Source of the DNA: Candidatus Moraniibacteriota bacterium
Lineage (GTDB): Bacteria > Patescibacteriota > Minisyncoccia > Moranbacterales > UBA11712
Length of the DNA: 64,000 nucleotides
Assembly: GCA_030679895.1 (NCBI GenBank)
Contig: JAUXSN010000026.1
Coordinates: 24,661 to 88,660 of the forward strand
Direction of reading: 5' to 3'
Position numbers and translations under genes: made by a program. This document shows, piece by piece, positions 5,999 through 61,487 of this stretch (positions are counted from its first letter, which is position 1; the number at the start of each line of letters is the position of its first letter). The notes under the pieces were generated by a model that worked only from the letters and a program-made list of their open reading frames with translations, ran no database searches and was not told the DNA's origin.

Positions 5999-6604
5999 CT
6001 ATTCCTTCTTTTTCAACAACTTTTTCACTTCCCGATCGAAATCGGAGATATAATTTTTGTCCTGTTTTTTGCGATATTTTTCGAATTCTTTCAATGCCAG
6101 CGTTTCCGCCACTTCATGGCTGATTTTTCCCGCATTCATCAATATCTCATATTCGCTGAATTTCAAAAAAGCGTTCAGTTTTTTTATCCAGTCTTTCATG
6201 GTCATCACTCTGCCGCGCGCCGCTTGCAACTCGGCGTAATCAAGATACATATTGCCGATGCTGTTGAGATGAGCTAGTTCCTTTTTGTCCAAATAATTTT
6301 TGGCAATCACCGCGTCACTTGGCATGATTTTCCCCTGTGGAGAGCGCCGCCAGGAAGTCAATCCCATTTTTTCTTTTTGAACTTGTAAGAAATCTTTACA
6401 AGTTGCCAGTTCATCCAATTCACCTTCCGTATAAATATTCCTAAGATGCTGGGTAATATTTTGAGGTGTCGTATCAAAAAGCTCCGCCATACGTTTTTGC
6501 GGCAACCAAATATTTTCTTCAGCATAAAGCACCTCGATATTAACCGACCCATCCGGCGCCTGATAAAAAGCGATTTGATTGTCCGGTATCTTTTTTCTTT
6601 TCAT
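5999..6604 (-). CDS. RhuM-family (virulence protein RhuM / Fic-Doc-associated) DNA-binding protein, short form
   Basis: N-terminus IAFYQAPDGSVNIEVLYAEENIWLPQKRMAELFDTTPQNITQHLRNIYTEGEL and C-terminus LAHLNSIGNMYLDYAELQAARGRVMTMKDWIKKLNAFLKFSEYEILMNAGKISHEVAE match the RhuM family signature as I remember it. Confidence 0.65.
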   Translation of the reverse strand: MKRKKIPDNQIAFYQAPDGSVNIEVLYAEENIWLPQKRMAELFDTTPQNITQHLRNIYTEGELDELATCKDFLQVQKEKMGLTSWRRSPQGKIMPSDAVIAKNYLDKKELAHLNSIGNMYLDYAELQAARGRVMTMKDWIKKLNAFLKFSEYEILMNAGKISHEVAETLALKEFEKYRKKQDKNYISDFDREVKKLLKKKE

Positions 6605-7257: not shown

Positions 7258-7410
7258 AAAATCTAAATATCAAAATCCAAATGTTCCCGCTAAAGCGGGA
7301 TCCCGCCGTGGCGGTGACAAATCAAGCTCAAAATCTAAAATCTAAAAAATCTTGACATTTGGATTTTTGATTTGATTTGACATTTGAGCTTTGGATTTTT
7401 GATTTCCAAG
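7258..7410. repeat. Composite intergenic repeat: inverted caaaatc/gattttg arms around a GC double hairpin (7286..7319)
   Basis: tatcaaaatccaaatgtt...acatttggatttttgat arms flank cccgctaaagcgggatcccgccgtggcggtgaca; the same double hairpin occurs reverse-complemented at 11219..11252. Confidence 0.7.
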
Positions 7411-11126: not shown

Positions 11127-11285
11127 TTATCAATTTTTAATTTCTAAACAATTTTCAATGACTGAATGAATCAATTTTCAACGTTATGTTTAAGAAATTG
11201 GGAAATTTAAGCATTGTTTGTCACCGCCTTGGCGGGATCCCGCTTGGGCGGGAAAAATTGAAAATTAGAAATTGAAAATTGCGCG
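11127..11285. repeat. Composite repeat: AATTTTCAA unit arms around the GC double hairpin tgtcaccgccttggcgggatcccgcttgggcggg (11219..11252)
   Basis: The hairpin is the reverse complement (loops differ) of the one at 7286..7319 and is flanked by ttgaaaatt and aattttcaa units. Confidence 0.7.
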
Positions 11286-20900: not shown

Positions 20901-20960
20901 GCTTTGAGGAATCCGCCGATGAGGCGGAGGAAAAGGTCGAACCTTGGTTTAAAGGTCGGA
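20901..20960 (+). ncRNA. Gene-3'-end structured element, variant copy of the family-2 element at 21647 and 23430
   Basis: gctttGAGGAATccgccgatgaggcggAGGAAAAggtcgaacctt shares the GAGGAAT...AGGAAAA core with the other two copies but has a different inner hairpin. Confidence 0.5.
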
Positions 20961-21646: not shown

Positions 21647-21718
21647 ATAAAGCTAACAAAGGTTCGACCTTGAGGAATTGCAAGTGATAGCGAGCAAGGA
21701 AAAGGTCGAACCTTGAAA
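21647..21718 (+). ncRNA. Family-2 structured element: outer stem aggttcgacctt/aaggtcgaacct around the conserved core GAGGAATTGCAAGTGATAGCGAGCAAGGAAAA, followed by a small terminator
   Basis: The core is near-identical to the copy at 23443..23471 while the stems differ but remain complementary (compensatory changes). Confidence 0.55.
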
Positions 21719-32423: not shown

Positions 32424-33152
32424 ATGCTTTACAATGTTAAATTATTTAGAAAATATCAAAATATTCAAGCTTTTTTCTCCCGAAAATCAGATAGTTCAAT
32501 GAAATTGACAAGCAATTCCCTTTTGAAAAAAAGAATATCCGCCAATCGAGAAGATTATTTCGTGAAAAATAACATCGATCCGAAAAATGTTGTTTCGGCA
32601 AAAATAGTTCATGAAAAGAAGCTTGCTGCTGTTCATGAAAAAGACAGCAGGAAAATTATATCAGGCGTTGATGGATTAATTACTCAAAATAAAAACATAT
32701 TTTTATCAATAACTTCAGCTGATTGCCTGCCGATTTTTTTGTTCGAGCCGGAAAAAGAAATTATCGGCATGATCCACGCCGGCTGGCGGAACCTGGAAAA
32801 AGGCATCGCATCCAATGCTGTCGAAAAAATTATTAAACTTGGCGGAAGACCGGAAAATATTTTGGTCGGGATTGGCCCCGCTATCTGCCAAAAACATTAT
32901 GAAGTCGGACTGGAGGTCGCGGAAAAATTCAAAAAATATCCCGAGGCGATAAAAAAAGAGGGTGGAAAAACATATCTGGACATAAAAAAAATCGCCCAGC
33001 TTCAGCTCTTGGAATTGGGAATAAGAAAAGGAAATATTGAAATTAGTTCTGAATGTACTTTTGAACTTCCTAAAAAATATTTTTCGGCGAGACGAGACAA
33101 ACCAAAGATAGTAGAAGCAATGATAGCAGTAATCGGAATGAAAAATACTTGA
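32424..33152 (+). CDS. pgeF: Peptidoglycan editing factor PgeF / YfiH (DUF152, laccase-domain) family
   Basis: SADCLPIF...HAGWRN motif pair; 242 aa. Confidence 0.75.
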   Translation: MLYNVKLFRKYQNIQAFFSRKSDSSMKLTSNSLLKKRISANREDYFVKNNIDPKNVVSAKIVHEKKLAAVHEKDSRKIISGVDGLITQNKNIFLSITSADCLPIFLFEPEKEIIGMIHAGWRNLEKGIASNAVEKIIKLGGRPENILVGIGPAICQKHYEVGLEVAEKFKKYPEAIKKEGGKTYLDIKKIAQLQLLELGIRKGNIEISSECTFELPKKYFSARRDKPKIVEAMIAVIGMKNT

Positions 33153-33210
33153 TATAAATGGAAGTCGAACTTCCAAAGATATCAAAAGATTATCCCACTT
33201 CTGTATATTT

Positions 33211-33340
33211 TGTGCCCTCGACAGCCCCGCTCCTCACGAAGGGCGGGGTAAAGAATCACACGATATAGTTTTCTTGTGTCCTCAGAGGGAGTCGAACCTT
33301 CATCTCCCCGCCACGGCGGGGCGCTCTTTTTTTATAGCTA
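33211..33340 (-). repeat. Two tandem truncated copies of a tRNA 3' half (T-arm plus acceptor) downstream of tRNA-Arg, each next to a GC hairpin (33306..33336 is also a plus-strand terminator)
   Basis: Minus strand: GAAGGTTCGACTCCCTCTGAGGACA and GCGGGGCTGTCGAGGGCA against the genuine 3' half ACAGGTTCGATTCCTGTCGAGGACA; neither fragment has a D or anticodon arm. Confidence 0.6.
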
Positions 33341-33341
33341 G

Positions 33342-33413
33342 TGTCCTCGACAGGAATCGAACCTGTATTTTGAGTTCCGGAAACTCACGTCCTATCCGTT
33401 GGACTACGAGGAC
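33342..33413 (-). tRNA. tRNA-Arg (anticodon CCG)
   Basis: Hand-folded GTCCTCGTAGTCCAACGGATAGGACGTGAGTTTCCGGAACTCAAAATACAGGTTCGATTCCTGTCGAGGACA; all four arms pair. Confidence 0.75.
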
Positions 33414-33417
33414 TTTT

Positions 33418-34707
33418 CTATCTATCCTTCCAGTTTTCCCTTCTTAATTTCTTGTGATAACTGATCGCGAAGCGGTGGGCTTCGTTTCGGATTCGCTCAA
33501 GCAATTTTTCGTCGCTCAATATCCGATTATACTTCTCTCTTATTTGCTCATTTCGACCGAGATATGTCAAGAGAAACTTTGACTGATAGACATCCAGTTT
33601 TTTTCGCGTCGGTCCTTTGGCAACTGCGATGACCGGGATATCCATTTTAAAATCCTTCAAAACGCTTTGCGCCATATTGAGATGCCCCTTTCCCCCATCA
33701 AGAAGAATTAGATCCGGTCTTGCCCAGTTATTTTTGAATCTCCTATATAATACTTCTCGCATCATGGCCACGTCATCAATTCCGGATACGGTTTTTATTT
33801 TGAACTTTCGGTATTCGTTTTTATCCTCCTTCCCATTTGTAAATACAACCATCGAGCCAACCGCGTAATCCCCGCCGATGTTTGAAATATCATAGGCTTC
33901 AATCCTGAATGGTTTTGGAAGTTTAGCTTCCATAATGGAAGCTAAACTTCCACTTCCACTATCCTCGGATATCAACACCACATCCCGAATATGCTCCAGA
34001 GCAAAGATCCGATTGCGCGTTTCAGCGGCTTTTTCGAATTCTCTTTTTTTGGAATAATCTTTCATTTCTTTTTCCAGTTTTCCAATCAAACTTTTTTTCT
34101 TGCCTTCAAGGATCATCTTCACTCCCCGAATATTTTTGAGATAATCTTTTTTCGAAATCGCGCCCGCGTACGGCCCCGGACATCTTCCGATCTGGAAATC
34201 GAAACAACATTGACTCGTCGCCCGCTTTGCGCTGTGAAACGGAAAAATTCTGCGGATGAGTTTCAAAGCAATATTCATTTGGTGCTTCGAGAGATACGGC
34301 CCGTATATTTTTTTCGCCGGTACTTTCCCCAGTTCCGTTTTCCAAAGGATCACCACCCGCGGAAATTTTTCTTTGGTGATCACAAAATAGCCGAAACTCT
34401 TGTCATCTTTCGCCATCACATTATATTTCGGCTGGTGTTTTTTGATGAGATTTGCTTCCAAAATCAGCGCTTCAAGAACCGAATCAGTTTCATGGATTTT
34501 AATGTCCGCAACTTGCAAAACCATCGGCTCAATATTCGGCCTGTCGAGGTGAAACCTCGACAGGAAATAACTCCCCACCCGATCCTTGAGACTCGTCGCT
34601 TTCCCAATATAAAGAATTTTCCCTTGCTTATCACGGAATTCGTACACGCCGGGGGATTTTGGAAGCTTATTTATGCTGTTTTTTGGGGCTTGGCTTGACA
34701 ATGGCAT
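33418..34707 (-). CDS. uvrC: Excinuclease ABC subunit C, short form lacking the C-terminal (HhH)2 domain
   Basis: GIY-YIG (GVYEFRDKQGKILYIGKATSLKDRV), UvrBC-interaction and RNase H-like endonuclease regions; only 429 aa. Confidence 0.8.
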   Translation of the reverse strand: MPLSSQAPKNSINKLPKSPGVYEFRDKQGKILYIGKATSLKDRVGSYFLSRFHLDRPNIEPMVLQVADIKIHETDSVLEALILEANLIKKHQPKYNVMAKDDKSFGYFVITKEKFPRVVILWKTELGKVPAKKIYGPYLSKHQMNIALKLIRRIFPFHSAKRATSQCCFDFQIGRCPGPYAGAISKKDYLKNIRGVKMILEGKKKSLIGKLEKEMKDYSKKREFEKAAETRNRIFALEHIRDVVLISEDSGSGSLASIMEAKLPKPFRIEAYDISNIGGDYAVGSMVVFTNGKEDKNEYRKFKIKTVSGIDDVAMMREVLYRRFKNNWARPDLILLDGGKGHLNMAQSVLKDFKMDIPVIAVAKGPTRKKLDVYQSKFLLTYLGRNEQIREKYNRILSDEKLLERIRNEAHRFAISYHKKLRRENWKDR

Positions 34708-34760
34708 ATTTTTTATATATTGTTATCTGAAAACCAAATAAAGCGAATTAAGGAGGCGTC

Positions 34761-35003
34761 ATGCAGTACGTTATCGTTGAGAGGGTTCACATCACGAACC
34801 TTCATACGGTATTTGGCCCGTATTCTTCTCTAGGAGTGGTGGGAAGAATTTTACAGAATAAAGGATATCACCTCTACCTCAACTGGGAGAAATCCGCCGG
34901 ACGGTTGGTGTATGAAAAGGAAAATGAGCGGGGCACGCACACCATCAAAACAGTAAGCGCAGTTGTGTGCCCGATTCTTCCGGACGCCAGCGGCATGGTT
35001 TAA
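34761..35003 (+). CDS. Hypothetical small protein (80 aa)
   Basis: Strong SD (AAGGAGG) before the ATG; terminator at 35033..35070. Confidence 0.45.
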   Translation: MQYVIVERVHITNLHTVFGPYSSLGVVGRILQNKGYHLYLNWEKSAGRLVYEKENERGTHTIKTVSAVVCPILPDASGMV

Positions 35004-35095
35004 TTTAATCACCGACTTGGTGACCACCCATAGTGGGAGCAGGTTTTATAGCTTGTCTCCCGCTTTTTTATTTGTAAAAAACCCTGACTCCTTTT

Positions 35096-35177
35096 TGTCA
35101 TTCCCGCGAAAGCGGGAATCCAGTAATCGTTGCTATTCAGTTTTTTTCTGGATTCCGCATCAAGTGCGGGATGACAC
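35096..35177. mobile_element. GC-hairpin palindromic MITE-like element, full copy A, immediately 3' of uvrA
   Basis: tgtcattcccgcgaaagcgggaatccag - spacer - ctggattccgcatcaagtgcgggatgacac; termini TGTCAT/ATGACA. Confidence 0.7.
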
Positions 35178-35183
35178 TTCGTG

Positions 35184-43148: not shown

Positions 43149-45689
43149 TTACAGCGGTTTTTCTCCCATATCGAATGCGTCAGCCGTGGCCGGCGTGGCG
43201 ATATAGCTCGCCTTTTTCATTATCTCTGCATTCACTATATCACGGCTGCGTCCATATTTCAACTTGGAAAGTTCTTTGATGGCTTCCGCCACTTTGGGAT
43301 TGCCCTTTGTCGGCGGATAGGTTTTCATATTGAACGGCGTTGCCACCTGGCTGTTGATCAGAAGCTTCATGAAACAATTGCGGTTATCCACGTTCATCAG
43401 ATCATTCGCGTCGAACACCGGCTCAAATTGCTTCTGCACAAATTCGGCGTCTTCCGCTCCGATCCGGAAGGAACAAATGGATCCGACGTTTCCAAAAACG
43501 GCTTTCGAAATTTCTTCTTTGAGCTGGGCAATGAATTGATGGGCGATAATGAGCGCCAAGCGGTATTTTCGGGCTTCCGAAAGGATCTGGGAGATCGAAT
43601 CGGTGGTGAAGTTCTGGAATTCGTCGATATAGAGATAGAAGTCTTTGCGTTCCGCTTCCGGCATATCCACCCGGGAAAGAGCGGCAATCAGAATTTTTCC
43701 GACAATCACCATTCCGAGAAGATTGGCGTTTATTTCACCGATTTTCCCCTTTGAAAGATTGACGAGAACAATTTGCTGGTCATCCATCGCCCGGCGGAAA
43801 TTCACCGTCGTCTTTTCCTGGGCGATAATCGGCCGCATCATATCGTTCGATATAAACTGCGTGAGTTTCGAGGTGATATAGGGAACCATATTCGCCAGCG
43901 CCGCCTCTCCGCCCGCTTTTTCGGCTTCCTTTTCCCAAAAATTCTTCACAATCGGGTTAGAGCAATAAGAAAGCTTCATGTGCCGGAATTCCTCATCGGC
44001 CAAAACCCTCGGGATCTCCATCAGGGTCGAACCTGATTCCGGATGCTCCATCACCAGAAGCGCCGCGTTTCGCATATATTGCTCGAACATCGGACCGCCG
44101 GTTTGCTTCAAATCATAAAGCTTGTCGAAAATATTGATGATTTCATTGATGACAAAAGTTTTTTGTTCCGGTTTATTGGTATCATACTCGAGCATATTGA
44201 GCCCGAAGGGGCGCTCCATATCCGCCGGGTCGAAATATATGACGTCTTCCGCCCGCTCTTTCGGAACGCATTCGATCACGTGTTCGACAAATTCGCCGTG
44301 AGGATCGATGACGCAAACGCCCCGACCGTTCTTGATGTCTTGCTTGACCATTTCTTCCATCATTGTTGATTTACCGGTTCCCGTCTGCCCGACGATATAG
44401 AAATGGCGGCGGCGGTCGTCATCATCGTGATGGATGACTGTTTCCACTCCCCGGTAATCATTGAATCCCAGAATTATTCCTTCTTTGGAAATATTCGGCG
44501 GCGGCGCGGCCGTCCGGGCCTTGAGCCAGGCAATTTTGGGAGTTTCCGTCGAAAAGAGCGGAAAATGGAAGATGCTGGATATTTCTTCCGAAGAAAGCAC
44601 GAAGCTTTGCTCGTTTTTGAAATTGCGGAAAATGAAATCGAAAGCGATTTTTTTCTCTTTTTTCTGATTTTCTCTCACAACCTTGAAGCCGTTTATACTC
44701 GGATTTTCGTACTGGATAAAAGCATTTTCCAGTTCCGCGAGAACTGCTTCGGCTCTTTCCTTGCTTAGGGCCGAGGATACCAGCCTGATGTTTGCGCTAA
44801 AACCGGGCTTATTAGCTTTTCCTTCAATTTTTTTGACAATTTCCTGCTCTTCCGGAGTGAGTTGGATAGTTTCCTTATCGGATTTAAAAACATCCCTTTT
44901 CTGGTCCTCGTTCTTTTTGACCATTACATTGAAAAATCCGCGGAAAAATTGCCGGAAAGGCGTGTCGCGTTTTACGTCGGAGAGGCGCCTCCCCTGCTGC
45001 ATTTTGTGGGCAATTTCCCTTCCCTTGCTCCTCCAATCTCCGCGGGCAGGCTTCACGAGCAGCTGGATGGCCGCCCCTTCTTTTTTTTCATCAAACTTTC
45101 CCAGAACATTGGTAATGTTGTTGAGCGGATCGGATTCCAAAGTTTGGTACGTGCGAAGCGGAAGACAATCTTTTTCCCGAAGTTTCAAATACGAAGCGGC
45201 AGTGAAGCTTCCCGGATAAAATATATTGTAGTCTTTCACGCGTTCAATGGCCGCTTTCGGATAAAAACTGTGAATTTGTCTTTCGACAATCTCAATAAAT
45301 TTTTTTGGAGCTCCCACATAGAAAGAAATTTCATCGTTTTCAGCCGGGTTGGAAATTTCCAGCGCGATCACCGCGTCGCCATAAATTATCCTGTGCCAAA
45401 GACCCGCTTTTTCTTTTATGTTTCCGAGGCTGGCGAAGAGATGCTCCATAACAGCGATTATCTCTTTTTCCGGCTTGGGCTGCTGTTGTTGCTGCTGGGA
45501 TGATTGCGATTGAGTTTTGAGAGAATGGCTGACCTTCACAACATCGATATCCATATTCAAAGAGCGGGTAATTTGTCCCTTGAATATGGTGAAGCTTCGA
45601 AAAATCATCCATCCGCCGGATATGAAACTAGCCAGAGCCAGAAGGCCAGCCAGCGGATAAAGTATTAAATTGAGGTTATAGGCGTCCAT
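43149..45689 (-). CDS. VirB4/TraC/TrbE-family (FtsK-HerA superfamily) secretion or conjugation-type ATPase with an N-terminal TM helix
   Basis: 846 aa; Walker A HFYIVGQTGTGKST...VIDPHGEF near aa 425; Walker B FYLYIDEFQNF; RKYRLALIIAHQF motif; VirB4-like domain order (large N-domain, ATPase in the C-terminal half). Confidence 0.6.
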   Translation of the reverse strand: MDAYNLNLILYPLAGLLALASFISGGWMIFRSFTIFKGQITRSLNMDIDVVKVSHSLKTQSQSSQQQQQQPKPEKEIIAVMEHLFASLGNIKEKAGLWHRIIYGDAVIALEISNPAENDEISFYVGAPKKFIEIVERQIHSFYPKAAIERVKDYNIFYPGSFTAASYLKLREKDCLPLRTYQTLESDPLNNITNVLGKFDEKKEGAAIQLLVKPARGDWRSKGREIAHKMQQGRRLSDVKRDTPFRQFFRGFFNVMVKKNEDQKRDVFKSDKETIQLTPEEQEIVKKIEGKANKPGFSANIRLVSSALSKERAEAVLAELENAFIQYENPSINGFKVVRENQKKEKKIAFDFIFRNFKNEQSFVLSSEEISSIFHFPLFSTETPKIAWLKARTAAPPPNISKEGIILGFNDYRGVETVIHHDDDDRRRHFYIVGQTGTGKSTMMEEMVKQDIKNGRGVCVIDPHGEFVEHVIECVPKERAEDVIYFDPADMERPFGLNMLEYDTNKPEQKTFVINEIINIFDKLYDLKQTGGPMFEQYMRNAALLVMEHPESGSTLMEIPRVLADEEFRHMKLSYCSNPIVKNFWEKEAEKAGGEAALANMVPYITSKLTQFISNDMMRPIIAQEKTTVNFRRAMDDQQIVLVNLSKGKIGEINANLLGMVIVGKILIAALSRVDMPEAERKDFYLYIDEFQNFTTDSISQILSEARKYRLALIIAHQFIAQLKEEISKAVFGNVGSICSFRIGAEDAEFVQKQFEPVFDANDLMNVDNRNCFMKLLINSQVATPFNMKTYPPTKGNPKVAEAIKELSKLKYGRSRDIVNAEIMKKASYIATPATADAFDMGEKPL

Positions 45690-45716
45690 TTTTTATTTTT
45701 ATTTCCACTATACAGT

Positions 45717-46253
45717 CTACAATTCCACAAGAAGTCCTTTTTGGAAAAGCTGTTTTCTCAAATCTTCCTCGATCATCTTATCGTGCAACTCGTCCAAAGT
45801 GTAATTGTCGTTGGCGTCCATATGTTGAGCTACTTTTATGGCGTGTTCCGGCCCCTTTTGAAGAGCCAACTCCACCAGCTTTTCGACTTTTTTTTCGTAT
45901 TCGGCAATTCCGGCCACTATTTTGGCATCGTCGGCAATTGTGGTCGCCACGGGCGTTTTTTGCGTGCTGATGGTTTTGCGGACAGTTTCGATTTTTTCGG
46001 ACACTTTTTCTTCCTGGAATTCTCCTCCGATTTCCCGCTCGAGACCGGGAGTTTCAATTTCTCCTGCTAATATACTTTCCGCCGACTCCGTCGAAGGTAA
46101 TATTTCTTCCTGTTCCGACGGTTTTTCAGAAACGTTTTTTTCTTCATTTATAAAGGTTTTTTCGGGATTCAAAGCCTCGCCCGGACCGGTAAATTTTTTC
46201 GTCAAATCAAGATCCTCCTTTTCGATTGGCTCCTGATAATTGGACTGTGCCAT
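45717..46253 (-). CDS. Hypothetical acidic protein (178 aa)
   Basis: Co-directional, 27 nt upstream of the ATPase; Glu-rich. Confidence 0.45.
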   Translation of the reverse strand: MAQSNYQEPIEKEDLDLTKKFTGPGEALNPEKTFINEEKNVSEKPSEQEEILPSTESAESILAGEIETPGLEREIGGEFQEEKVSEKIETVRKTISTQKTPVATTIADDAKIVAGIAEYEKKVEKLVELALQKGPEHAIKVAQHMDANDNYTLDELHDKMIEEDLRKQLFQKGLLVEL

Positions 46254-46314
46254 TGGGATAAATTTATCAATTAGTTAGATAATGCAAAAACCGCACTTTT
46301 ACGCATCCTGACCT

Positions 46315-46653
46315 TTATTTATTTTCCACTGGAGCATTTTTGCCAAAGCTGGCGATATCTTCTTTTAATTCGTCCTTTAATTCACTGACAACTTTCTTCA
46401 CGAATTCGTCGTAGTCGCTTATCTTGCTTCGGAGAAAAGATTCGACTTTCTCCTGATCGGATTTTTCCTCCAGCATTTTCATCAATTCCTGCTGATCTTC
46501 TTTCGTTAATCTGTCCATCGTTTCCATATACAAGCGCTTCAAAACAAGTTCCAGCAAGTCAACCAGAATTTGCGCTTTTCTTTCTTCGGGTAAATCTCCA
46601 AGTCCCAGCTCATCAATAATTGTTTGTTGTAAGATCGTATTTTTTTCGGTCAT
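46315..46653 (-). CDS. Hypothetical acidic helical protein (112 aa)
   Basis: Co-directional member of the cluster. Confidence 0.45.
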   Translation of the reverse strand: MTEKNTILQQTIIDELGLGDLPEERKAQILVDLLELVLKRLYMETMDRLTKEDQQELMKMLEEKSDQEKVESFLRSKISDYDEFVKKVVSELKDELKEDIASFGKNAPVENK

Positions 46654-46670
46654 TTTGTTTATTTAATTAT

Positions 46671-48938
46671 TTATGCGTTGACTACTCTTTTTAGAGTTCT
46701 AACTATTTCTTCAGGCGTTACTTTCCCCTGCGCTAATCCTCTTTGAAGCCAACTTTCCGTGCTTTCATTGCCAAGGGTTGGCCCCAGCTTTCTATTCAGC
46801 TCTTGAGCTGCCCGCCAATACTGTTGCTGTTCGCCAACATTAGCCGGCGGTCCCATCGGCTGATCGGAAGTTAGAAATGATCCCAACATTCTTTTTCTGA
46901 ATTCGCTGGCCGGCTCCCTCCAATCAACAGTTGTACCCTCGCCGTATATTCTTTCTTGAATGAAATCCATCCATTTGTGCGTTTGAGTGTTATCTATCGC
47001 AGCCGTTTCAGCAATTCTATCCGCTATTAGCGGTCCTCTTGATTGGACTAAAGCTTCGTGGGTCTGAGCTGATATTGCGGCTTTCTTCGCATAATTTTCT
47101 TGAGCCATTTTTTGCCGATTATCAAGCGCTTGATCCAACGCCGAACGTTTTCCAGTAGTTTCATAAGTGCTCGCTCCTCGCGGATGATTATCGGCAACGG
47201 CTCTCCCTGCTCCTCCGGGCGCGGAAGCTTCTGCTACAGCTTGTCCGGCACCGCCTGCCCGTGGAACATCATGTATGTGGCCCGCCTTTATTCCCGAAGT
47301 TTCACCAAGTAAAATATGCCCGTCTGCGTCGAGAGTGATCGAATCTCCCGGATGAACCACGATGTTGCCTATACCCTGTTCTTTTATGGCGCCCACCGTT
47401 CTCCATTCAGCCCAAATTTTATGTTTTTGATCGTCCGTCAAGCCGCTGAAGTCTTCAACCCCTTTTATGCCTAAACGCTTCAGAATACCTTGATCCTTGA
47501 ACGATCCAAACAGTCTTTTTGCCTCATCGTCGCTATATCCGTATTCATCAAAATGTTGCATAAAAATATCTCGCGTGCTTCTCCAAACGCTCCCGCCTTC
47601 TCCTACTTTTGCTGTACCTCCGGTAAATTCCCAATGCTCTACCTGTTCATATCCAGGTACTATTGGACCATGTTTCTGATCAGGGTTGATAATTCCTTTC
47701 CCGGCTCCGGCTGGCATTTCCGCATCGGTAATTGAACTGTGCGCGGCATCGTAAAAACCGGTTTTTCCGCCTCCGAACGAATGCGTCACCTTTTCCCAAG
47801 CCTGGCCGAAGAATCCTTTAATATCGGCTGCGTAATAGCTGGCGATAGTGCCCGCCAAAAATGTTCCGCCCGCAAGCCCAAGCGCCAATTTTTTATGTTT
47901 TGCGTCTTTATCAGCAAATGCTTGCTCCTCCCCTGTTATTGATTTTAAGCCTTCCCTTTCCGCAATAAAAGCGTTCCATTCTTCATCCGTTTTTTGTTTT
48001 TTGGCCTCAATTATTTTTAAAACATCGGCTTGAACTTCTTTTTCCTTTTTTTCCACGAAGCCTTTCTCCATTCTTTTCTTCAACGCATAACCGGCTCCTA
48101 CAGAACCAAAAGCGCGCCACGCCATTGCTGCCGACGCCCCGGCTGATCCAACTGCCACAATACCCAAAGCGGGCAAACTGGCCGCGATAAGAGACGTTGC
48201 GGCAAAACCAATGGCCGCGGCAGTTGCCACCCCTTTCGCAACTCCTTTTACGGTCAATTTTCCATCCTTTAGAAATTGTTTGGAGATAAACTCCCGGTAA
48301 TTCTTGCTGACGTTTGCCAAGCCCACAAAAGCATTGTTAAATGTGGCATCTTTTGCTCGAATTCCGTCTTCCTCCAGCCTCGATTTGATGGCAACCATTG
48401 TCTCGTGATAATTTGTCTCAAATTCCGCCCACTCTTGCTCATTTCCGCTCAAGACGTGCCTGCCAGCAGCCATTAATTTCGGGTGCAAAGTTTTTCTATT
48501 TTCCAGGTATCCCTTGATTTCTTCATCTTCAATATTTCTTTTCCATATACCCAAAGCTTCAAAAATAATCTTCAATTTGCCTTTCGATTTATGCCTTGCT
48601 GCGGCTATCTTTTTTTCATTTTCATCAAATTCCTTCCTCACTTGATCAAATTCTTTCCGGATTTTTCTTTCTTCTTCAAGCGTTGCCAAAGGAACCGGTG
48701 GCTGATCAATCCGACTGCCCCGGCTACCACCTTCAAATTCACTGAACCTCTTTGGCTCTCTTTTTTCCTCGGTTCCAGCTCTATCGTGACCAGGCTCACC
48801 TCCCATAAGCCCCGCCCCGGATTTTTCAACGGGTTCCGGTTCAGCATCGGGAGACGTGGCTGCTGGAGTCGCAGTTACAAGATCTTCAGGCTTCCCGGGT
48901 CGCGGATTGATATCTTTTCTTAAACCTTCTCTTATCAT
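46671..48938 (-). CDS. Large hypothetical protein (755 aa) with a central Gly/Ala-rich block of 2-3 TM helices; GC-richer than the flanks
   Basis: Hydrophobic block GVATAAAIGFAATSLIAASLPALGIVAVGSAGASAAMAW; no recognised catalytic motif. Confidence 0.5.
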   Translation of the reverse strand: MIREGLRKDINPRPGKPEDLVTATPAATSPDAEPEPVEKSGAGLMGGEPGHDRAGTEEKREPKRFSEFEGGSRGSRIDQPPVPLATLEEERKIRKEFDQVRKEFDENEKKIAAARHKSKGKLKIIFEALGIWKRNIEDEEIKGYLENRKTLHPKLMAAGRHVLSGNEQEWAEFETNYHETMVAIKSRLEEDGIRAKDATFNNAFVGLANVSKNYREFISKQFLKDGKLTVKGVAKGVATAAAIGFAATSLIAASLPALGIVAVGSAGASAAMAWRAFGSVGAGYALKKRMEKGFVEKKEKEVQADVLKIIEAKKQKTDEEWNAFIAEREGLKSITGEEQAFADKDAKHKKLALGLAGGTFLAGTIASYYAADIKGFFGQAWEKVTHSFGGGKTGFYDAAHSSITDAEMPAGAGKGIINPDQKHGPIVPGYEQVEHWEFTGGTAKVGEGGSVWRSTRDIFMQHFDEYGYSDDEAKRLFGSFKDQGILKRLGIKGVEDFSGLTDDQKHKIWAEWRTVGAIKEQGIGNIVVHPGDSITLDADGHILLGETSGIKAGHIHDVPRAGGAGQAVAEASAPGGAGRAVADNHPRGASTYETTGKRSALDQALDNRQKMAQENYAKKAAISAQTHEALVQSRGPLIADRIAETAAIDNTQTHKWMDFIQERIYGEGTTVDWREPASEFRKRMLGSFLTSDQPMGPPANVGEQQQYWRAAQELNRKLGPTLGNESTESWLQRGLAQGKVTPEEIVRTLKRVVNA

Positions 48939-48945
48939 ATAAATT

Positions 48946-49986
48946 TTATTTACTTTTAGCTAAAAAATCTTCAATTTCAGTTGCTTCTTCAAAAAACTTG
49001 GCTATTTGTTTAACACCCTCTTCGCTAAAATTTTCTTCTCTTGCAATTTCTTCCACAAAACCGATAAATTCCAAGTTGAGAGCGGCTAGCTCTCCCTTTT
49101 TTATATCTATTTTATCCTTTTCTTTTCTATAACGGTTTAAAACCGGCATCAGCCAATCTTTCAAAAAATATTCAACATCCTCTTCCGGCAGTTTGGCTAT
49201 TTCGCTTAAGGCTGCGTTTGCTTTGTTCAGAGCTTTCATCTTGACATCAACTATTCTTTTTTCATTCGGAGATAAACTATCATAATTTAGTGCCAGCGAT
49301 TCGCGAGCTTCCTGAATTCCCGCTTTTTTGAATAATTCTTCTTTTATATCCGTTTCGGCAGGTTCCCTTTCTCCGGCAGCATCACCGGCTTCGGAACCAC
49401 TTTTCCCAATATTTTCTCTTCTTTTTTCGATTTTTCGCAACTCCTTATAAGAAGTAAGAAATTTGCTTAATTCCCTCTCCGGATTGAGGCAGCGTTTATA
49501 TACCGCGTTTTGCGCAAATTGTGTATACTTTATTTTTTTCCCGGCTAACTCCAAATCGGCTATTCCAGCCGCTATATCTTGAAAAATTTGCTCCATAGAT
49601 TCTTCGATTTTTTCTATGGAACTTGAAAACTCATCGATCTCTTTTGCTAAATCGTCATAATTTATTCCCTTGCTTTCAATCAGCCTCTTTCTTTCAGCAT
49701 TTTCTTTCGCCACAAGCGCCCATTCCATTTTTTCTTTCAACTTGCCGTACGCCTCCTTGATCGCTTCTTTTATTTCTTCGCCATATTCCTTTTTGATCTT
49801 TTCTATTTTCGCTTTTTTTTCCTCGGAATCAAATTCATCTTTAATCCCTTGGTTTACCACCAATTTTTCTTCTTCCGCAACAGCTATTCCAGGGACAGTA
49901 ATTTTCCTATCTGCCGCCGAGGCAACCGCGGCTCCCTTTACTTCCAAACCCGGAGCTACTCCCGATGTTTTTTTCCTTCCACTCAT
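48946..49986 (-). CDS. Hypothetical coiled-coil protein (346 aa)
   Basis: K/E-rich heptad-like sequence; 7-nt gap to the downstream gene. Confidence 0.45.
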   Translation of the reverse strand: MSGRKKTSGVAPGLEVKGAAVASAADRKITVPGIAVAEEEKLVVNQGIKDEFDSEEKKAKIEKIKKEYGEEIKEAIKEAYGKLKEKMEWALVAKENAERKRLIESKGINYDDLAKEIDEFSSSIEKIEESMEQIFQDIAAGIADLELAGKKIKYTQFAQNAVYKRCLNPERELSKFLTSYKELRKIEKRRENIGKSGSEAGDAAGEREPAETDIKEELFKKAGIQEARESLALNYDSLSPNEKRIVDVKMKALNKANAALSEIAKLPEEDVEYFLKDWLMPVLNRYRKEKDKIDIKKGELAALNLEFIGFVEEIAREENFSEEGVKQIAKFFEEATEIEDFLAKSK

Positions 49987-50159
49987 TTCGTCAAAATAAA
50001 ATTAAACTAGCGCAAAACTAGTCTGCGTTCGTAATTGGATTATACCACAAAATTAATGTGAAAAGAACCCTGTGGATAACTTTTTCTTCAAAAAAATAAC
50101 CCCGATCCGAATCAAGCAGCGCCTGATTCGAAACGGGGGTCGGAAAAACTTACCGTTGC

Positions 50160-50966
50160 TTAGAACACCTCCAGGGGAATCCGAGCTTCTCCCTTCGGAT
50201 CCCCATTGGGGACGATACGAATTTCGCGTTTACCGGGAGCAGAAAATGTGAAGGTATTGGGGTGCTTGATCGTCATTGCGACCGAGCCATCAAACTCGAT
50301 TCGGTCCGAATCATCATTGATGTCGGAGCGGATGAAGAGTAAATCAAACCCGCTTTTCAACCTAATGCCCTGTTTATGGTTTTCGGGGGAGATTATCTCC
50401 ACTTTCCCTCCCTCAATCCTGAATGTGATAATCCGGTCATTGATTTTTTTATCCGTGGGAATTATTACCGCGGTCAAAGGCCTTTCCTTCACCGCTGCCT
50501 GTCCATTCCAATGCGCAATAGACATCGTGACCCCGGACCAAATTTCAATAATGTCTCCGCTGACACGGAGAAAGCCATTAGGGATATCCCTTTCCTCCTT
50601 GACGAATTTTATCCCCCCGCGTATAGGCTGCATCACCAGGTAACTAAGTTCCGGAGCGGAACTGCCTTTTGTAAAAGAGAAAACAATGGCATCTTTGCCC
50701 GCGCCAAAAAAATTGCGGACCGGCTCCACGATTCCAGCCGAATGCTCTGTATAGCTGATAACCTTTTTCAGCTTTCCCCCAGACTTGAGAAATATCTGAA
50801 CATGGGTCTGGTCAGATTGGAAATCCGTGCAATAAACGACCCGGTAATGCTTTTTGCCCCACTTCAGGAAAAAATTCCCCTCTTCGGCCTTTCCCGGAGC
50901 AGGAAAAGCAAATAAGATCAGAAAAACTACCGCTAATACGCCACACAAATTTTTAAAAAACAACAT
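50160..50966 (-). CDS. Hypothetical secreted protein (signal peptide MLFFKNLCGVLAVVFLILFAFPAPGKA), first gene of the cluster
   Basis: GGAGGG SD before the ATG at 50966; the track ORF extends to 51014. Confidence 0.45.
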   Translation of the reverse strand: MLFFKNLCGVLAVVFLILFAFPAPGKAEEGNFFLKWGKKHYRVVYCTDFQSDQTHVQIFLKSGGKLKKVISYTEHSAGIVEPVRNFFGAGKDAIVFSFTKGSSAPELSYLVMQPIRGGIKFVKEERDIPNGFLRVSGDIIEIWSGVTMSIAHWNGQAAVKERPLTAVIIPTDKKINDRIITFRIEGGKVEIISPENHKQGIRLKSGFDLLFIRSDINDDSDRIEFDGSVAMTIKHPNTFTFSAPGKREIRIVPNGDPKGEARIPLEVF

Positions 50967-51094
50967 GAAGTTCACCCTCCCCGTCCGAGTTTTTTTACCA
51001 CTTTGCCTAATCATTAGGGTAAATTGCTGTTTTTGTCAAGTTATTGCTGGCCGGACTTTTTTAGTGTATAATAATATCGTACCGCGATGAAATT

Positions 51095-52789
51095 TTGAAA
51101 CAAAAAATGCGAAAGAGAATAAAAACTCGATGGAAAAGATGGAGAAGTGTCGCGAGTGATTATATCCGCTATAAGCCGGAACAAAAACTCGGCCGCCGGC
51201 AGAAATATTTATATCTGCTGCTTGGCGCGGTTATCGTGATCGGCGCTTTTGCAATCCGGGCCTACCACATTTCTTCTCTTCCGCCGGGAATATATCCCGA
51301 TGAAGCAGTCAACGGCACGGATGCCATAAACGCGATTGAAACCGGCCATTTTCGGCTTTTTTATCCGAATAATTACGGACGGGAGGGGCTATACATAAAC
51401 CTCATTGCTTTAGGATTTATTTTTTTCGGCGTCAGTATCATCACTCTCAAGATTTGGTCAGTATTTTTCGGGACTCTGACTGTGCTCGGAATGATCTTTC
51501 TTGGCCGGGAATTGTTCCGGTCCTGGCACGCGGGACTGGTCGCCGGATTTTTGTACGCCACCACTTTTTGGGCCATAAATTTCAACCGGATCGCTTTCCG
51601 CGCCAATATGCTTCCCTTCGTCCTGGTTTTTTCTTTTTATTTCCTTTTTAGAGGGTTGCGAACCAAAAAAAAGATAAACTACGTCCTCGCCGGAACACTT
51701 TTCGGACTCGGTACTCATACCTACATCGCGTTTCGGGTCGCTCCCGCGATACTGATCGCCCTTTTTATTGCTCTGATTCTCGCAAAAAAATCTTTTTTGA
51801 AAACATATTGGAAAGAAATTTCCATTTATGTTCTTTCTATGTTTTTCGTGGCTCTTCCGATCCTTCTCACTTTCTACGCCCATCCGGAATATTTCGAAAC
51901 CCGCTCCGAAGCGGTTTCCGTTTTTTCTCCGAAAGTCAACCAGGGCCATCTTTGGCAGGCCCTGGGAACCAGCGCCCGCCTTACTTTCGGCATGTTTAAT
52001 TTCAAAGGAGACCAGAATTGGCGTCATAATCTCCCCAGTCAGCCGGAACTTCAATCCTGGACGGGAACATTTTTCCTGATCGGAATTATATTTTTATTTT
52101 TTCAGCTTTTTTATTGGATTTTTTGGAGAATTAAAAATGGAATTCGAAACGATAATTTGACTCTTCCCGTGCTTCTCCTCTCTTGGATCTTTATCATGCT
52201 TCTTCCGGAAATGCTGGCCTATGAAGGCCTGCCGCACACGTTGAGAGCCATCGGCTCGCTCCCTGCCGCCATTTTAATAGCTGTTTTCTCAATTGAAGTC
52301 TTCAGGAGATGGATAATGAAAATCAGTATCGGATACATCAAGATTCCGCTTTATATTTTGCTGGTTTCAGCTGTTTTATTCAGCGGCTATATCTCAACCA
52401 AAAGATATTTTGTCGATTGGGGCCAGAGCCTCGATATTCATCCGGCTTTTTCTCAAAATTTGAAGAATATGGCCCTTTACCTCAATAGCGCTCCCGACAG
52501 TTATCATAAGTACATAGTCGCCAATGCCGGCGGGCAGATTATGGACGATGGCCTGCCGGTTTCCGCCGAGGCGGTAAAAATGCTAACATACTATCGGACT
52601 CCCGGAATAACTTATCTTCGTCCCGGTTTTGATCCGTCCGTTATAAAATCTCCGGCAAAAATGGTCCTGATGTATTACGACGGAGTGATTATTGCCGATA
52701 TTAAATCAAGATTTTCAAACGTTTACATCCAAAAACTGGATCCCCAACCCGGAAACGGAACCGATTATTTTGTAATAAACATTAATTGA
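51095..52789 (+). CDS. GT-C fold glycosyltransferase, ArnT/PMT family (GT39-like)
   Basis: YPDEAVNG DE motif in the first periplasmic loop; polytopic; 564 aa. Confidence 0.6.
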   Translation: MKQKMRKRIKTRWKRWRSVASDYIRYKPEQKLGRRQKYLYLLLGAVIVIGAFAIRAYHISSLPPGIYPDEAVNGTDAINAIETGHFRLFYPNNYGREGLYINLIALGFIFFGVSIITLKIWSVFFGTLTVLGMIFLGRELFRSWHAGLVAGFLYATTFWAINFNRIAFRANMLPFVLVFSFYFLFRGLRTKKKINYVLAGTLFGLGTHTYIAFRVAPAILIALFIALILAKKSFLKTYWKEISIYVLSMFFVALPILLTFYAHPEYFETRSEAVSVFSPKVNQGHLWQALGTSARLTFGMFNFKGDQNWRHNLPSQPELQSWTGTFFLIGIIFLFFQLFYWIFWRIKNGIRNDNLTLPVLLLSWIFIMLLPEMLAYEGLPHTLRAIGSLPAAILIAVFSIEVFRRWIMKISIGYIKIPLYILLVSAVLFSGYISTKRYFVDWGQSLDIHPAFSQNLKNMALYLNSAPDSYHKYIVANAGGQIMDDGLPVSAEAVKMLTYYRTPGITYLRPGFDPSVIKSPAKMVLMYYDGVIIADIKSRFSNVYIQKLDPQPGNGTDYFVININ

Positions 52790-56471: not shown

Positions 56472-56553
56472 TGTCATCCCGCACTTGATGCGGGATCCAG
56501 TTTCTATGCATAAAATTACATTTTCTGGATCCCCGCTTTCGCGGGGATGACAC
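56472..56553. mobile_element. GC-hairpin palindromic MITE-like element, full copy D
   Basis: tgtcatcccgcacttgatgcgggatccag - spacer - ctggatccccgctttcgcggggatgacac. Confidence 0.7.
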
Positions 56554-56588: not shown

Positions 56589-57782
56589 TTAACTAAAATA
56601 TTTCTCCATCCGATCAAACGCCAAATTTATATCCTCTTCCGATCTTCCGAAGCACATCCGAATGTGATTTTCCCCGCTCGGGCCGAAAGCCGCTCCGGGA
56701 ACGGTGGCTACTCTGGCTTTCTCTAACAATTCTATCGCAAATTGCCATGATCCGCCATCGGTCGATATTTTTTTCAGATATTCATCTTTTATCCTCGGAA
56801 ATACGAAATAGGCGCTGTCCGGTTTTTGATAGGAAAACACTTTTGTAAGTTTATCGAGCCGCCGGCAAATCAAGTCCCGCCTCTTTTTGTATATTTGGTG
56901 ATATTTTGCAAGCTCCGAATCCGCCATCTCAAGCGCCGCGAGCGCCGCGTATTGCGAAACGACCGGCGCGCAAGTGACCAGAGCGTCATGAACGGCCAGA
57001 ATTTTTTTCGCGAGTTCCTGATGCGTGGCAAGATACGCTATCCGCCAGCCAGTCATCGCGTAGGCTTTGGAAAAGGAAAAAATGTATATCAAGCGATCCC
57101 GAATACCGCGCAGTTCGGCAAGAGAATATAACGGAAGGTTCGACCTCCCTGTGGAGGTTGAACCTCCATTATCCTCAAAAACAAAATCCTTATACACCTC
57201 GTCGGAAAAAATATAAAGATTATGCTTGATCGCCAGTTGCGCCAAAGCATGAAGCTGGTTTCGTGAAAATATCGTTCCGGTCGGATTGTTCGGATTGCAG
57301 AAAAGGAAAGCGCGCGTCCGCGGCGTAATGAGCTTTTCAAATTTATCGATATCAAACGCCCAGCCTTTTTCTTCGTCAAGCGGAACAAAAATCGGCGTTC
57401 CGCGAGCCACTTTTATCGCTGATTGATATGACGTATAAGTCGGATCCGGTATCAGCACTTCGTCTCCCGGCTCAAGAATGGCAAGAAGCGTGGCTGTGAT
57501 CGCTTCAATCGACCCGGCGGTAGCGATAATTTCCGTTTCAAAATCGAAGAATTTATTTTCTTTCTCCAAATAATGAGCAATAGTTTCCCGAAATTCCAAA
57601 ATTCCCGGCGAAAGGGAATATTTGGCGACTTTTCCCTGCTCAATCGCCTCAATCGCCCGCCGTTTGATCGGCTCGGGCGTATCAAAAGACGGCACACCTT
57701 GCGCAAGCGAAACAACTCCGGGAATGCGAGACGCCCGGAGTTCCATTTCCTTAATTGGGGATAAGTTTATTTTCTCACCCAT
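56589..57782 (-). CDS. PLP-dependent aminotransferase, class I/II (AspC-like)
   Basis: SFSKAYAMTGWRIAY lysine motif; 397 aa. Confidence 0.8.
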   Translation of the reverse strand: MGEKINLSPIKEMELRASRIPGVVSLAQGVPSFDTPEPIKRRAIEAIEQGKVAKYSLSPGILEFRETIAHYLEKENKFFDFETEIIATAGSIEAITATLLAILEPGDEVLIPDPTYTSYQSAIKVARGTPIFVPLDEEKGWAFDIDKFEKLITPRTRAFLFCNPNNPTGTIFSRNQLHALAQLAIKHNLYIFSDEVYKDFVFEDNGGSTSTGRSNLPLYSLAELRGIRDRLIYIFSFSKAYAMTGWRIAYLATHQELAKKILAVHDALVTCAPVVSQYAALAALEMADSELAKYHQIYKKRRDLICRRLDKLTKVFSYQKPDSAYFVFPRIKDEYLKKISTDGGSWQFAIELLEKARVATVPGAAFGPSGENHIRMCFGRSEEDINLAFDRMEKYFS

Positions 57783-61444: not shown

Positions 61445-61487
61445 GCAAAAAAACAACCCCGCCTTTCGTGAAGGGCGGGGTTGCTTG
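61445..61487 (-). terminator. Rho-independent terminator of greA
   Basis: caaccccgccctttcgtgaagggcggggttg with a U-run on the minus strand. Confidence 0.65.

Follow-up and report, generated by a model that had tools for sequence, protein, structure and literature searches.

Fragments downstream of a uvrC-proximal tRNA-Arg(CCG) gene as possible remnants of serially replaced tRNA genes in Candidatus Moraniibacteriota

In a 64,000-nucleotide (nt) window of contig JAUXSN010000026.1, from a Candidatus Moraniibacteriota genome, a single intact tRNA-Arg(CCG) gene next to uvrC is followed by two truncated tRNA 3'-end copies. We propose that these fragments are the dead remnants of two earlier tRNA-Arg(CCG) genes at the same uvrC-proximal site, which would have been replaced one after the other; we give this reading an even chance of being right. 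The nearer fragment, relic 1, is part of unit 2 of the array and was fragment 1 of a preliminary description of this DNA; the farther one, relic 2, is unit 3 and was fragment 2. That description had explained both as degenerate copies of the resident tRNA, probably left by integrase-mediated integration and excision. Coordinates throughout are those of the window, that is, of the whole 64,000-nt stretch analyzed. The array is on the minus strand, and "downstream" of the tRNA means toward lower coordinates.

The nearer fragment matches a type B allele and the farther one an A-like allele

The intact gene (72 nt; 33342 to 33413, minus strand) starts 5 nt past the uvrC stop codon. It was called by ARAGORN and matched Rfam family RF00005 over its full length (E 2.9e-14), with an Infernal/Rfam score of 66.8 bits against a gathering score of 29. 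Neither program called another tRNA between 33140 and 33341, even at E ≤ 10. Over 32900 to 33700, the Rfam search at this threshold returned only the intact tRNA, and the remaining matches were noise, such as Plastid-ycf2 antisense to tRNA-like sequence. Both fragments are present as the preliminary description had written them, and, as it had also held, they are not complete tRNAs. Together with the intact gene they form a three-unit array with periods of 72, 65, and 64 nt, in which a repeat search found direct repeats of 27 nt and 26 nt spaced 65 and 129 nt. The convergent intergenic region extends 190 nt below the tRNA, down to the pgeF stop at 33152. The array region was identical at 401 of 401 positions in an independent Logan contig (L001). 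This identity and the recurrence of array types in independent assemblies (L100 equals L177; L125 equals L178 and L179) rule out an assembly artifact.

Of the alleles that we found at this site, A and B have different bases at about 22 of 72 positions, and each of the four stems contains compensated changes. The intact gene of the window is A-type throughout: it has G7:C66 (A7:T66 in B) and the D stem GTCC/GGAC (GCTC/GAGC in B), and its anticodon and T stems are also A-type.

Relic 1 (33277 to 33326, minus strand) was delimited by alignment with B genes and by nhmmer. On the minus strand, unit 2 (65 nt) reads CTAGCTAT-A7, GAGCG, CCCCGCCGTGGCGGGG, and AGATGAAGGTTCGACTCCCTCTGAGGACA, and fragment 1 (...GGTTCGACTCCCTCTGAGGACA) ends at 33277. 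In the repeat search, relic 1 matched the resident tRNA at 21 of 27 aligned positions. Against type B the match was complete, at 27/27 positions for the B gene of locus L002 (blastn-short, E 2e-9) and, over the last 30 nt of the relic, at 30/30 for the B gene 3' end in L003. nhmmer placed relic 1 at tRNA positions 43 to 72 (20.9 bits, E 1.4e-6), and when it was aligned with four intact B genes and three relics homologous to it, the B homology resumed upstream of a hairpin, from position 22. GAGCG (33326-33322) corresponds to positions 22 to 26, a 16-nt GC hairpin (33321-33306) replaces the 17-nt anticodon arm, and positions 43 to 72 follow (variable loop, T arm, acceptor 3' strand, and discriminator). 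The 5' acceptor strand and the anticodon loop are missing; the D loop is still recognizable in the relic 1 homologues of L006 and L003. Allele B is found intact, with anticodon CCG, at the same uvrC-proximal site in L002, L003, L004, and L097. Relic 1 is thus what is left of a B-type gene after loss of the 5' end and the anticodon arm, and is not a degenerate copy of the resident tRNA. The fragments are tRNA remnants, as the preliminary description had said, but the allele of relic 1 is not the resident one, and its homology reaches further 5', to GAGCG, than the T arm and acceptor 3' half given there.

Relic 2 is the 64-nt unit 3 (33213 to 33276, minus strand), which reads CAAGAAAACTATATCGTGTGATTCTTTA, CCCCGCCCTTCGTGAGGAGCGGGG, and CTGTCGAGGGCA on the minus strand; fragment 2 (GCTGTCGAGGGCA) is at 33225-33213. 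A decayed 5' part is followed by the conserved GATTCTTTA (33257-33249), by a GC hairpin (33248-33225) that resembles a bona fide terminator stem at 61457-61480, and by the tRNA 3' end CTGTCGAGGGCA (33224-33213). This 3' end matches the A alleles of L006, L102, and L106 at 12/12 positions and the resident tRNA at 11/12; 4e-4 matches of 12/12 are expected by chance in 190 nt. The tRNA homology begins in the 3' strand of the T stem, and there is no 5' acceptor strand. In L002, L003, and L004, units homologous to relic 2 come after the intact B gene. Relic 2 is older than relic 1, and the order of A gene, B relic, and A-like relic therefore points to two successive events. The full matches of relic 1 to allele B and the conservation of relic 2 rule out chance similarity.

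One intact gene of varying type occupies the site in relatives

Relatives were collected through UvrC-anchored scans of GTDB genomes and JGI metagenomes and through look-ups of UvrC homologues; the nearest relatives of the window's UvrC are Moranbacteria, at up to 81% identity. This yielded 13 distinct loci with a tRNA-Arg(CCG) after uvrC and several further loci without the tRNA; three JGI contigs and one ENA contig were covered as gene maps only. Exactly one intact tRNA-Arg(CCG) is present in all 13 distinct loci. It is of type A in the window, L100/L177, L006, L102, L106, L007, and L125/L178; of type B in L002, L003, L004, L097, and L105; and of type C, a 74-nt gene, in L098. At least three alleles alternate as the single intact gene across the loci. 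L102 has a clean tRNA with a terminator and no relic. A whole tRNA-Arg array is missing after uvrC in L099, L101, L103, L104, L180, and L005. In such array-less relatives, with UvrC up to 80% identical, a bidirectional terminator comes directly after uvrC, together with a convergent Zn-ribbon or DUF378 gene. Within the clade, therefore, the array either occurs as a whole or is missing.

Partial copies in these loci have a strict polarity. In an nhmmer search with a 13-gene profile, all upstream partial copies started at tRNA position 1 to 3 and ended at 13, 21, 36, or 42, and all downstream ones ended at 70 to 72 and started at 37, 39, 43, 55, or 60. The units run B5'-A5'-B-Brel-X in L003, A5'-B5'-C in L098, and A5'-C5'-A'-A''-X in L125. 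We rejected the idea that two pieces of L125 (positions 1-36 and 37-70) are one cleanly split gene, as one half is of type C and the other of type A.

Such arrays could result from differential decay of an ancestral tandem array (A-B-X), in which redundant copies were lost reciprocally in different lineages through small deletions. The unit periods in the window look tandem, A and B are both at the site in distant relatives (L007 and L105), and the observed polarity would also follow from deletions that began within one copy and reached the border of the one retained. However, two intact tandem copies occur in none of the 13 distinct loci, and the differing orders in L003, L098, and L125 are not derivable from one ancestral order by deletion alone. 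In addition, near-identical cassettes occur between genomes with 74 to 80% uvrC identity, which argues for exchange and not for vertical decay. We consider decay of an ancestral array quite unlikely.

One such shared cassette is that of the window and L100. The two loci have 74% nucleotide identity in uvrC and are identical at 72/72 positions of the A gene, 14/15 of the spacer after it, and 30/33 at the start of relic 1; the homology extends no further than the tRNA 5' end and the relic T loop. L004 and L100 have a common 80-nt uvrC-tRNA spacer with one base different, and their arrays differ. Allele type does not follow uvrC relatedness, and the cassettes therefore move between lineages. The relic of L100 changes from B to A in the T loop, which is also where an 18-nt direct repeat of the A 3' end starts in this locus. 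L100 looks like a window-type cassette (A gene, spacer, and B relic) joined in the conserved T loop, at GGTT/CGA, to a resident A 3' end.

Structured inserts were also observed in the partial copies of relatives. The 5' partial copies, whether A-type or B-type, contain GC-rich hairpin inserts at shared tRNA positions, after 13 or after 21 (L097 2024-2080; L098 1409-1466 and 1515-1549; L003 5323-5358 and 5392-5431; L004 2301-2338; L125 4339-4378). Two compensatory stem changes distinguish the hairpin of L097 (CCCCGC..ATGC-TTCG-GCAT..GCGGGG) from that of L098 (CCCCACA..ATAC-TAT-GTAT..TGTGGGG). In 3' relics, structured inserts of 33 to 40 nt lie inside the T loop (GGTT/...GGTGG/CGATTCC) of L100 (3829-3861, equal to L177 6463-6495), L003 (5556-5588), and L125 (4591-4628); the L125 insert holds mutually complementary segments (GTCATCCGA and TCGGATGAC). 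In the window, the relic junctions are flanked by an A-run and by GC hairpins. A dispersed miniature inverted-repeat transposable element (MITE) was rejected as the source of the junction hairpins: CCTGCCCGCC had 6 matches against 3.1 expected in the window, which is chance level, and was rare in the loci.

The relics could be selected functional RNA or DNA elements (trailer processing or stability signals, decoys, or terminators) and not neutral scars. Relic 1 is identical at 46/51 positions (90%) between the window and L006, despite only 66% identity in uvrC, and the relic 2 core is conserved in four genomes. Perfect GC hairpins are kept, the 5' relic hairpin of L097 and L098 has the compensatory changes given above, and a terminator can be read on the plus strand through relic 1 (see below). 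However, the T-loop inserts break the T arm of the relic 1 homologues in L100 and L003, and relic 1 folds no better than shuffled sequences (z +0.7). RNAalifold gave no supported consensus structure for relic 2 (-2.7 kcal/mol, no useful covariation), the relics had no Rfam match, and L102 has no relic at all. We find a selected function of the relics very unlikely.

Canonical integrase scars do not account for relic 1

Partial tRNA genes are routinely taken as integrase footprints and are used to delimit genomic islands. In canonical integration, the complete tRNA is a chimera of a host 5' part and an element 3' part, and the cores of the attachment (att) sites are usually bounded by the anticodon loop or the T loop. 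On this model, which was that of the preliminary description, the fragments would be displaced host 3' ends (attR), with the tRNA rebuilt at attL and the elements later deleted. Several observations fit it. The genes that directly follow the array differ among relatives (pgeF, Zn-ribbon open reading frame (ORF), DUF378, or DUF5122), the direct repeat of the A 3' end in L100 starts in the T loop, and relic 2 begins inside the T arm. Moreover, tRNA gene fragments usually stem from partial copies that mark the ends of integrated elements (PMC9897764).

However, the intact gene is not a chimera of a B 5' part and an element 3' part. Within its positions 1 to 21 there are 4 differences from B, and these positions co-vary with the 3' half of the same gene; the 5' strand of its D stem and the GAGC of relic 1 do not pair. 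We therefore reject canonical attL/attR reconstitution for relic 1. The B sequence in this relic also goes back to position 22, in the D stem, which is beyond the usual boundaries of att cores, and 5' partial copies upstream of the tRNA, as seen in relatives, are not predicted by the canonical model. Neither relic is a near-identical direct repeat of the adjacent tRNA 3' part, with 21/27 positions identical in relic 1 and 11/12, over 12 nt, in relic 2. The fragments do record recombination at the tRNA locus and are in this sense scars of past events, as had been claimed, but the attL/attR mechanism is contradicted for relic 1.

A comparison with PYG1 of Pyrococcus yayanosii illustrates the difference. 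There, a partial tRNA at the border of the integrated element is a near-identical repeat of the same gene, for example over 44 bp (PMC9897764). Our locus is like such att borders in that a complete tRNA is accompanied by a nonfunctional truncated 3'-end copy that marks a recombination hot spot. Unlike PYG1-type borders, the copies here are 15 to 40 nt apart, no element or integrase was found, the better-preserved relic is a different allele, and relatives of the window also carry 5' partial copies.

The searches for an element were extended beyond the array. A Pfam scan covered 46 of the 49 non-overlapping window ORFs of at least 110 amino acids (aa), with a threshold of E ≤ 1e-8 for 40 of them, and no integrase, transposase, or phage gene was found among the 46. 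Gene maps of about 20 related loci showed no integrase or transposase, and the genes beside the array in these loci were housekeeping genes (pgeF, NUDIX, DUF378, tsaC, IMPDH, and a Zn-ribbon ORF). A tblastn search with the integrase of viral contig L094 (see below) against the window and 160 loci found no integrase. This agrees with the preliminary description, which had seen no integrase. The islands that it proposed to look for between the tRNA and the repeats in related genomes did not appear: no element body lies between the tRNA and a fragment in any relative examined, and no element remnant longer than about 100 nt was found in the window or in about 20 related loci. Taken together, we hold canonical tyrosine-integrase scars to be highly improbable. 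A noncanonical integrase route, in which the tRNA is disrupted by an element that supplies a copy of its own, is conceivable.

Decayed integrative elements with their own tRNA are the main rival to serial replacement through exchange among relatives. Such elements would integrate into a loop of the resident tRNA without rebuilding it and would supply a complete gene of the same isotype. Later deletion would leave only the essential incoming tRNA, and repeated cycles would give nested relics. This is tRNA-dependent lysogeny, in which actinobacteriophages use a tyrosine integrase, a prophage, and a common core of about 10 bp (Guerrero-Bustamante & Hatfull 2024; PMC10865867). The mechanism is documented in these phages and has been suggested for a Lactobacillus johnsonii prophage (PMC10865867). 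Our locus is like this system in that the resident tRNA is destroyed and not rebuilt, and a complete same-isotype gene in cis takes over and becomes unlosable; in the window, the intact A allele (CCG) adjoins a truncated B allele of the same isotype. Own-tRNA elements would explain the nonchimeric, same-anticodon incoming gene and the polarity of the 5' and 3' relics. Breakpoints that cluster in the D, anticodon, and T loops, and similar GC hairpins at identical positions (after 13 and 21) in different alleles, also fit. However, the two L125 pieces discussed above are not halves of one gene, and, unlike in tRNA-dependent lysogeny, no integrase, prophage, or common core is detectable here; only the end state would remain. 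The absence of any integrase, phage gene, or longer remnant from the window and about 20 loci counts against this explanation as well.

Viral carriers of the alleles were sought in 2.9 million viral contigs (IMG/VR). The allele-specific probes (24-mers from the A and B anticodon arms and a 25-mer from the B 3' end) had 0 matches there. A 24-mer from the A 3' end had 15, all in unrelated contexts. Twelve of these were the ends of complete tRNAs (anticodon CCT or ACG) in phage tRNA arrays, and two were high-GC fragments without a tRNA (L092 and L095). In the last (L094), from a low-GC host, an integrase ORF lies about 150 nt downstream of a complete tRNA-Arg(CCG). tRNA-Arg(CCG) 3' ends that are att-like (L092 and L095) or next to a tyrosine integrase (L094) speak for own-tRNA elements, and the unmatched probes and the unrelated contexts speak against them. 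The INPHARED phage collection gave generic tRNA similarity only. On balance, own-tRNA elements are a possible explanation that we nevertheless doubt.

Serial replacement and the routes it may have taken

On the reading that we favor, serial replacement, the oldest gene, with an A-like 3' end, would survive as relic 2. A complete B allele would then have been placed on the uvrC side of this gene and displaced it, and the present complete A allele would next have displaced B, which would survive as relic 1. In each case the incoming allele would land next to or inside the resident gene and truncate it. Among the 649 Arg codons in 30 Pfam-supported ORFs, CGG was the most frequent, with 157. One intact decoder must therefore persist, and this obligation would explain both the single intact copy everywhere and the relics piling up around the tRNA. 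An incoming gene that destroys the resident yet cannot be lost would act as a one-way ratchet that accumulates relics. We also count it in favor of serial replacement that the tRNA-Glu and tRNA-Gln genes of the window have no partial copies.

The swaps may have occurred through illegitimate or homology-facilitated recombination between diverged haplotypes exchanged among related Moranbacteria. One homologous anchor (uvrC, the downstream genes, or the tRNA itself) would be paired with an illegitimate junction in or beside the resident gene. If replacement did occur, we judge this route marginally probable. Homology-facilitated illegitimate recombination was reportedly described in transformable bacteria by de Vries and Wackernagel and by Prudhomme et al. 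It combines a homologous anchor with an illegitimate junction, so that foreign DNA is inserted and some of the resident sequence is deleted. Our locus is like it in that a complete foreign allele abuts a truncated resident and cassettes are common to diverged genomes. It is unlike it in that microhomology is not evident at the window junction, and the competence of candidate phyla radiation (CPR) bacteria is assumed. We know of no description of this process as serial tRNA gene replacement.

Several points weigh against serial replacement. We found no donor and recipient pair with clear microhomology at the window's join between the A-run and GAGCG, and natural transformation or recombination in these organisms is an assumption. 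Given the low identity of their uvrC genes, the identity of relic 1 between the window and L006 calls for recent transfer or for selection on this relic. In relic 1, a perfect GC hairpin of equal length stands in for the anticodon arm, which neutral decay does not predict. Hairpins at the same positions (13 and 21) in A- and B-type 5' relics hint at a site-specific process.

Such a process can be given a concrete form. The uvrC-proximal site could be the target of a minimal self-replacing tRNA cassette, or of tRNA-dependent-lysogeny elements outside Actinobacteria; we put this forward tentatively and think it doubtful. A complete tRNA-Arg(CCG) would be inserted site-specifically into loops of the resident (after 13, 21, 36, and 55). 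The resident would be killed and the newcomer would become indispensable, which would give nested "Russian-doll" relics, and the conserved GC hairpins would be recombination sites or selected RNA elements. Site-specific and functional readings, taken jointly, amount to a minority possibility. They are kept alive because of the equal-length hairpin swap, the 90% identity of relic 1, and the recurrent hairpin and T-loop inserts.

Serial replacement would mean that an integrase-like signature can arise without a detectable element, through wholesale allele replacement of an essential tRNA gene, and such replacement seems to have been repeated within one clade of streamlined CPR bacteria. CPR bacteria are thought to be largely clonal symbionts. 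If the process was recombinational, the locus would be a record of gene flow among these bacteria and of the turnover of alleles at a tRNA locus. If it was driven by elements, tRNA-dependent lysogeny would be extended to CPR bacteria and its long-term genomic end state shown. For annotation, the locus warns that att sites should not be called from tRNA 3' repeats alone.

Candidate terminators in and beyond the relics

A terminator scan found an intrinsic-terminator-like site on the plus strand at 33306 to 33333 (fold -12.5 kcal/mol), with a predicted function for the convergent pgeF. It reads CCCCGCCACGGCGGGG-CGCTC-TTTTTTT, in which the stem-loop CCCCGCC-ACG-GCGGGG (a 6-bp all-GC stem with a 4-nt loop) is followed by CGCTC and, 5 nt downstream of the stem, by T7. 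The site lies 154 nt past the pgeF stop and is built from the relic 1 hairpin and the A-run of the 15-nt spacer after the tRNA (CTAGCTAT plus A7; 33327 to 33341, minus strand), which is the T7 tract on the plus strand. It is like Rho-independent terminators in having a GC stem, a loop, and a T7 tract at a convergent gene end. Unlike in ordinary Rho-independent terminators, the stem-loop is at a former anticodon arm and the T tract at a former D loop or spacer. Based on the terminator predictions, the relic 1 hairpin and the A-run appear to have been co-opted as the Rho-independent terminator of pgeF. This terminator appears to be recycled from a tRNA pseudogene and would be a small example of a pseudogene fragment put to such use.

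The first minus-strand terminator-like site after the tRNA is an AT-rich hairpin (33185-33149) with a U-run. In the terminator scan it spans 33141 to 33185 (minus strand; core GGAAGTTCGACTTCC, then GUAUUUUU; fold -13.9 kcal/mol, z -5.2). This hairpin likely terminates a uvrC-tRNA transcription unit, for which we infer co-transcription. It lies beyond both relics, and the relics are therefore probably transcribed only as the tRNA 3' trailer.

Intergenic palindromes with the core AAGGTCGAACCTT had 9 matches in the window against 1.9 expected by chance. Palindromes with this or a related core are at 20932-20946, 21658-21672, 21701-21715, 57134-57167, and 33160-33175, and a related core, GGAAGTCGAACTTCC, lies in the AT-rich hairpin beside pgeF. 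These palindromes may be a terminator or repeat motif specific to this genome; the likeness to a T arm seems to be a coincidence.

Other features of the window

The upstream anchor of the array, uvrC (33418 to 34707, minus strand; 429 aa; Pfam GIY-YIG, UVR, and UvrC_RNaseH_dom), encodes the protein that assigns the genome to Candidatus Moraniibacteriota (CPR/Patescibacteria); this UvrC is 100% identical to a Moranbacteria protein at NCBI. Within it, in a variable stretch of UvrC (LSRFHLDRP), is a perfect 10-bp inverted repeat (34540-34566; CCTGTCGAGG-TTTCA-CCTCGACAGG on the minus strand). An arm of this repeat equals tRNA-Arg positions 59 to 68, with a 12-nt exact match, TTCCTGTCGAGG; it could be due to chance or be a secondary recombination site. 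On the other side of the array, the convergent pgeF/yfiH-like gene (Cu-oxidase_4; PF02578, E 3e-54) is at 32424 to 33152 on the plus strand.

The 476-nt spacer between uvrA and uvrC (34708-35183) is a window-specific insertion; uvrA abuts uvrC in L002, L004, and L097. It opens with two inverted GC hairpins, GTGTCATCCCGC..GCGGAATCCAG and CTGGATTCCCGCTTTCGCGGGAATGACA at 35096-35123. The same 28-mer recurs with 2 mismatches, together with a partner hairpin, at 56478-56552, and related hairpin pairs are found at about 7286 and about 11239 (7286-7320 and 11225-11252). These pairs look like a small repeated palindromic element of the MITE or repetitive extragenic palindromic (REP) kind. Farther away, at 43149-52789, an 846-aa VirD4/TrwB-like and HerA-like ATPase is followed by six ORFs without a Pfam match at E ≤ 1e-8; possibly, this region is a type IV secretion or pilus-like cluster of CPR bacteria. 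The window also has a RhuM-family ORF at 5999-6604.

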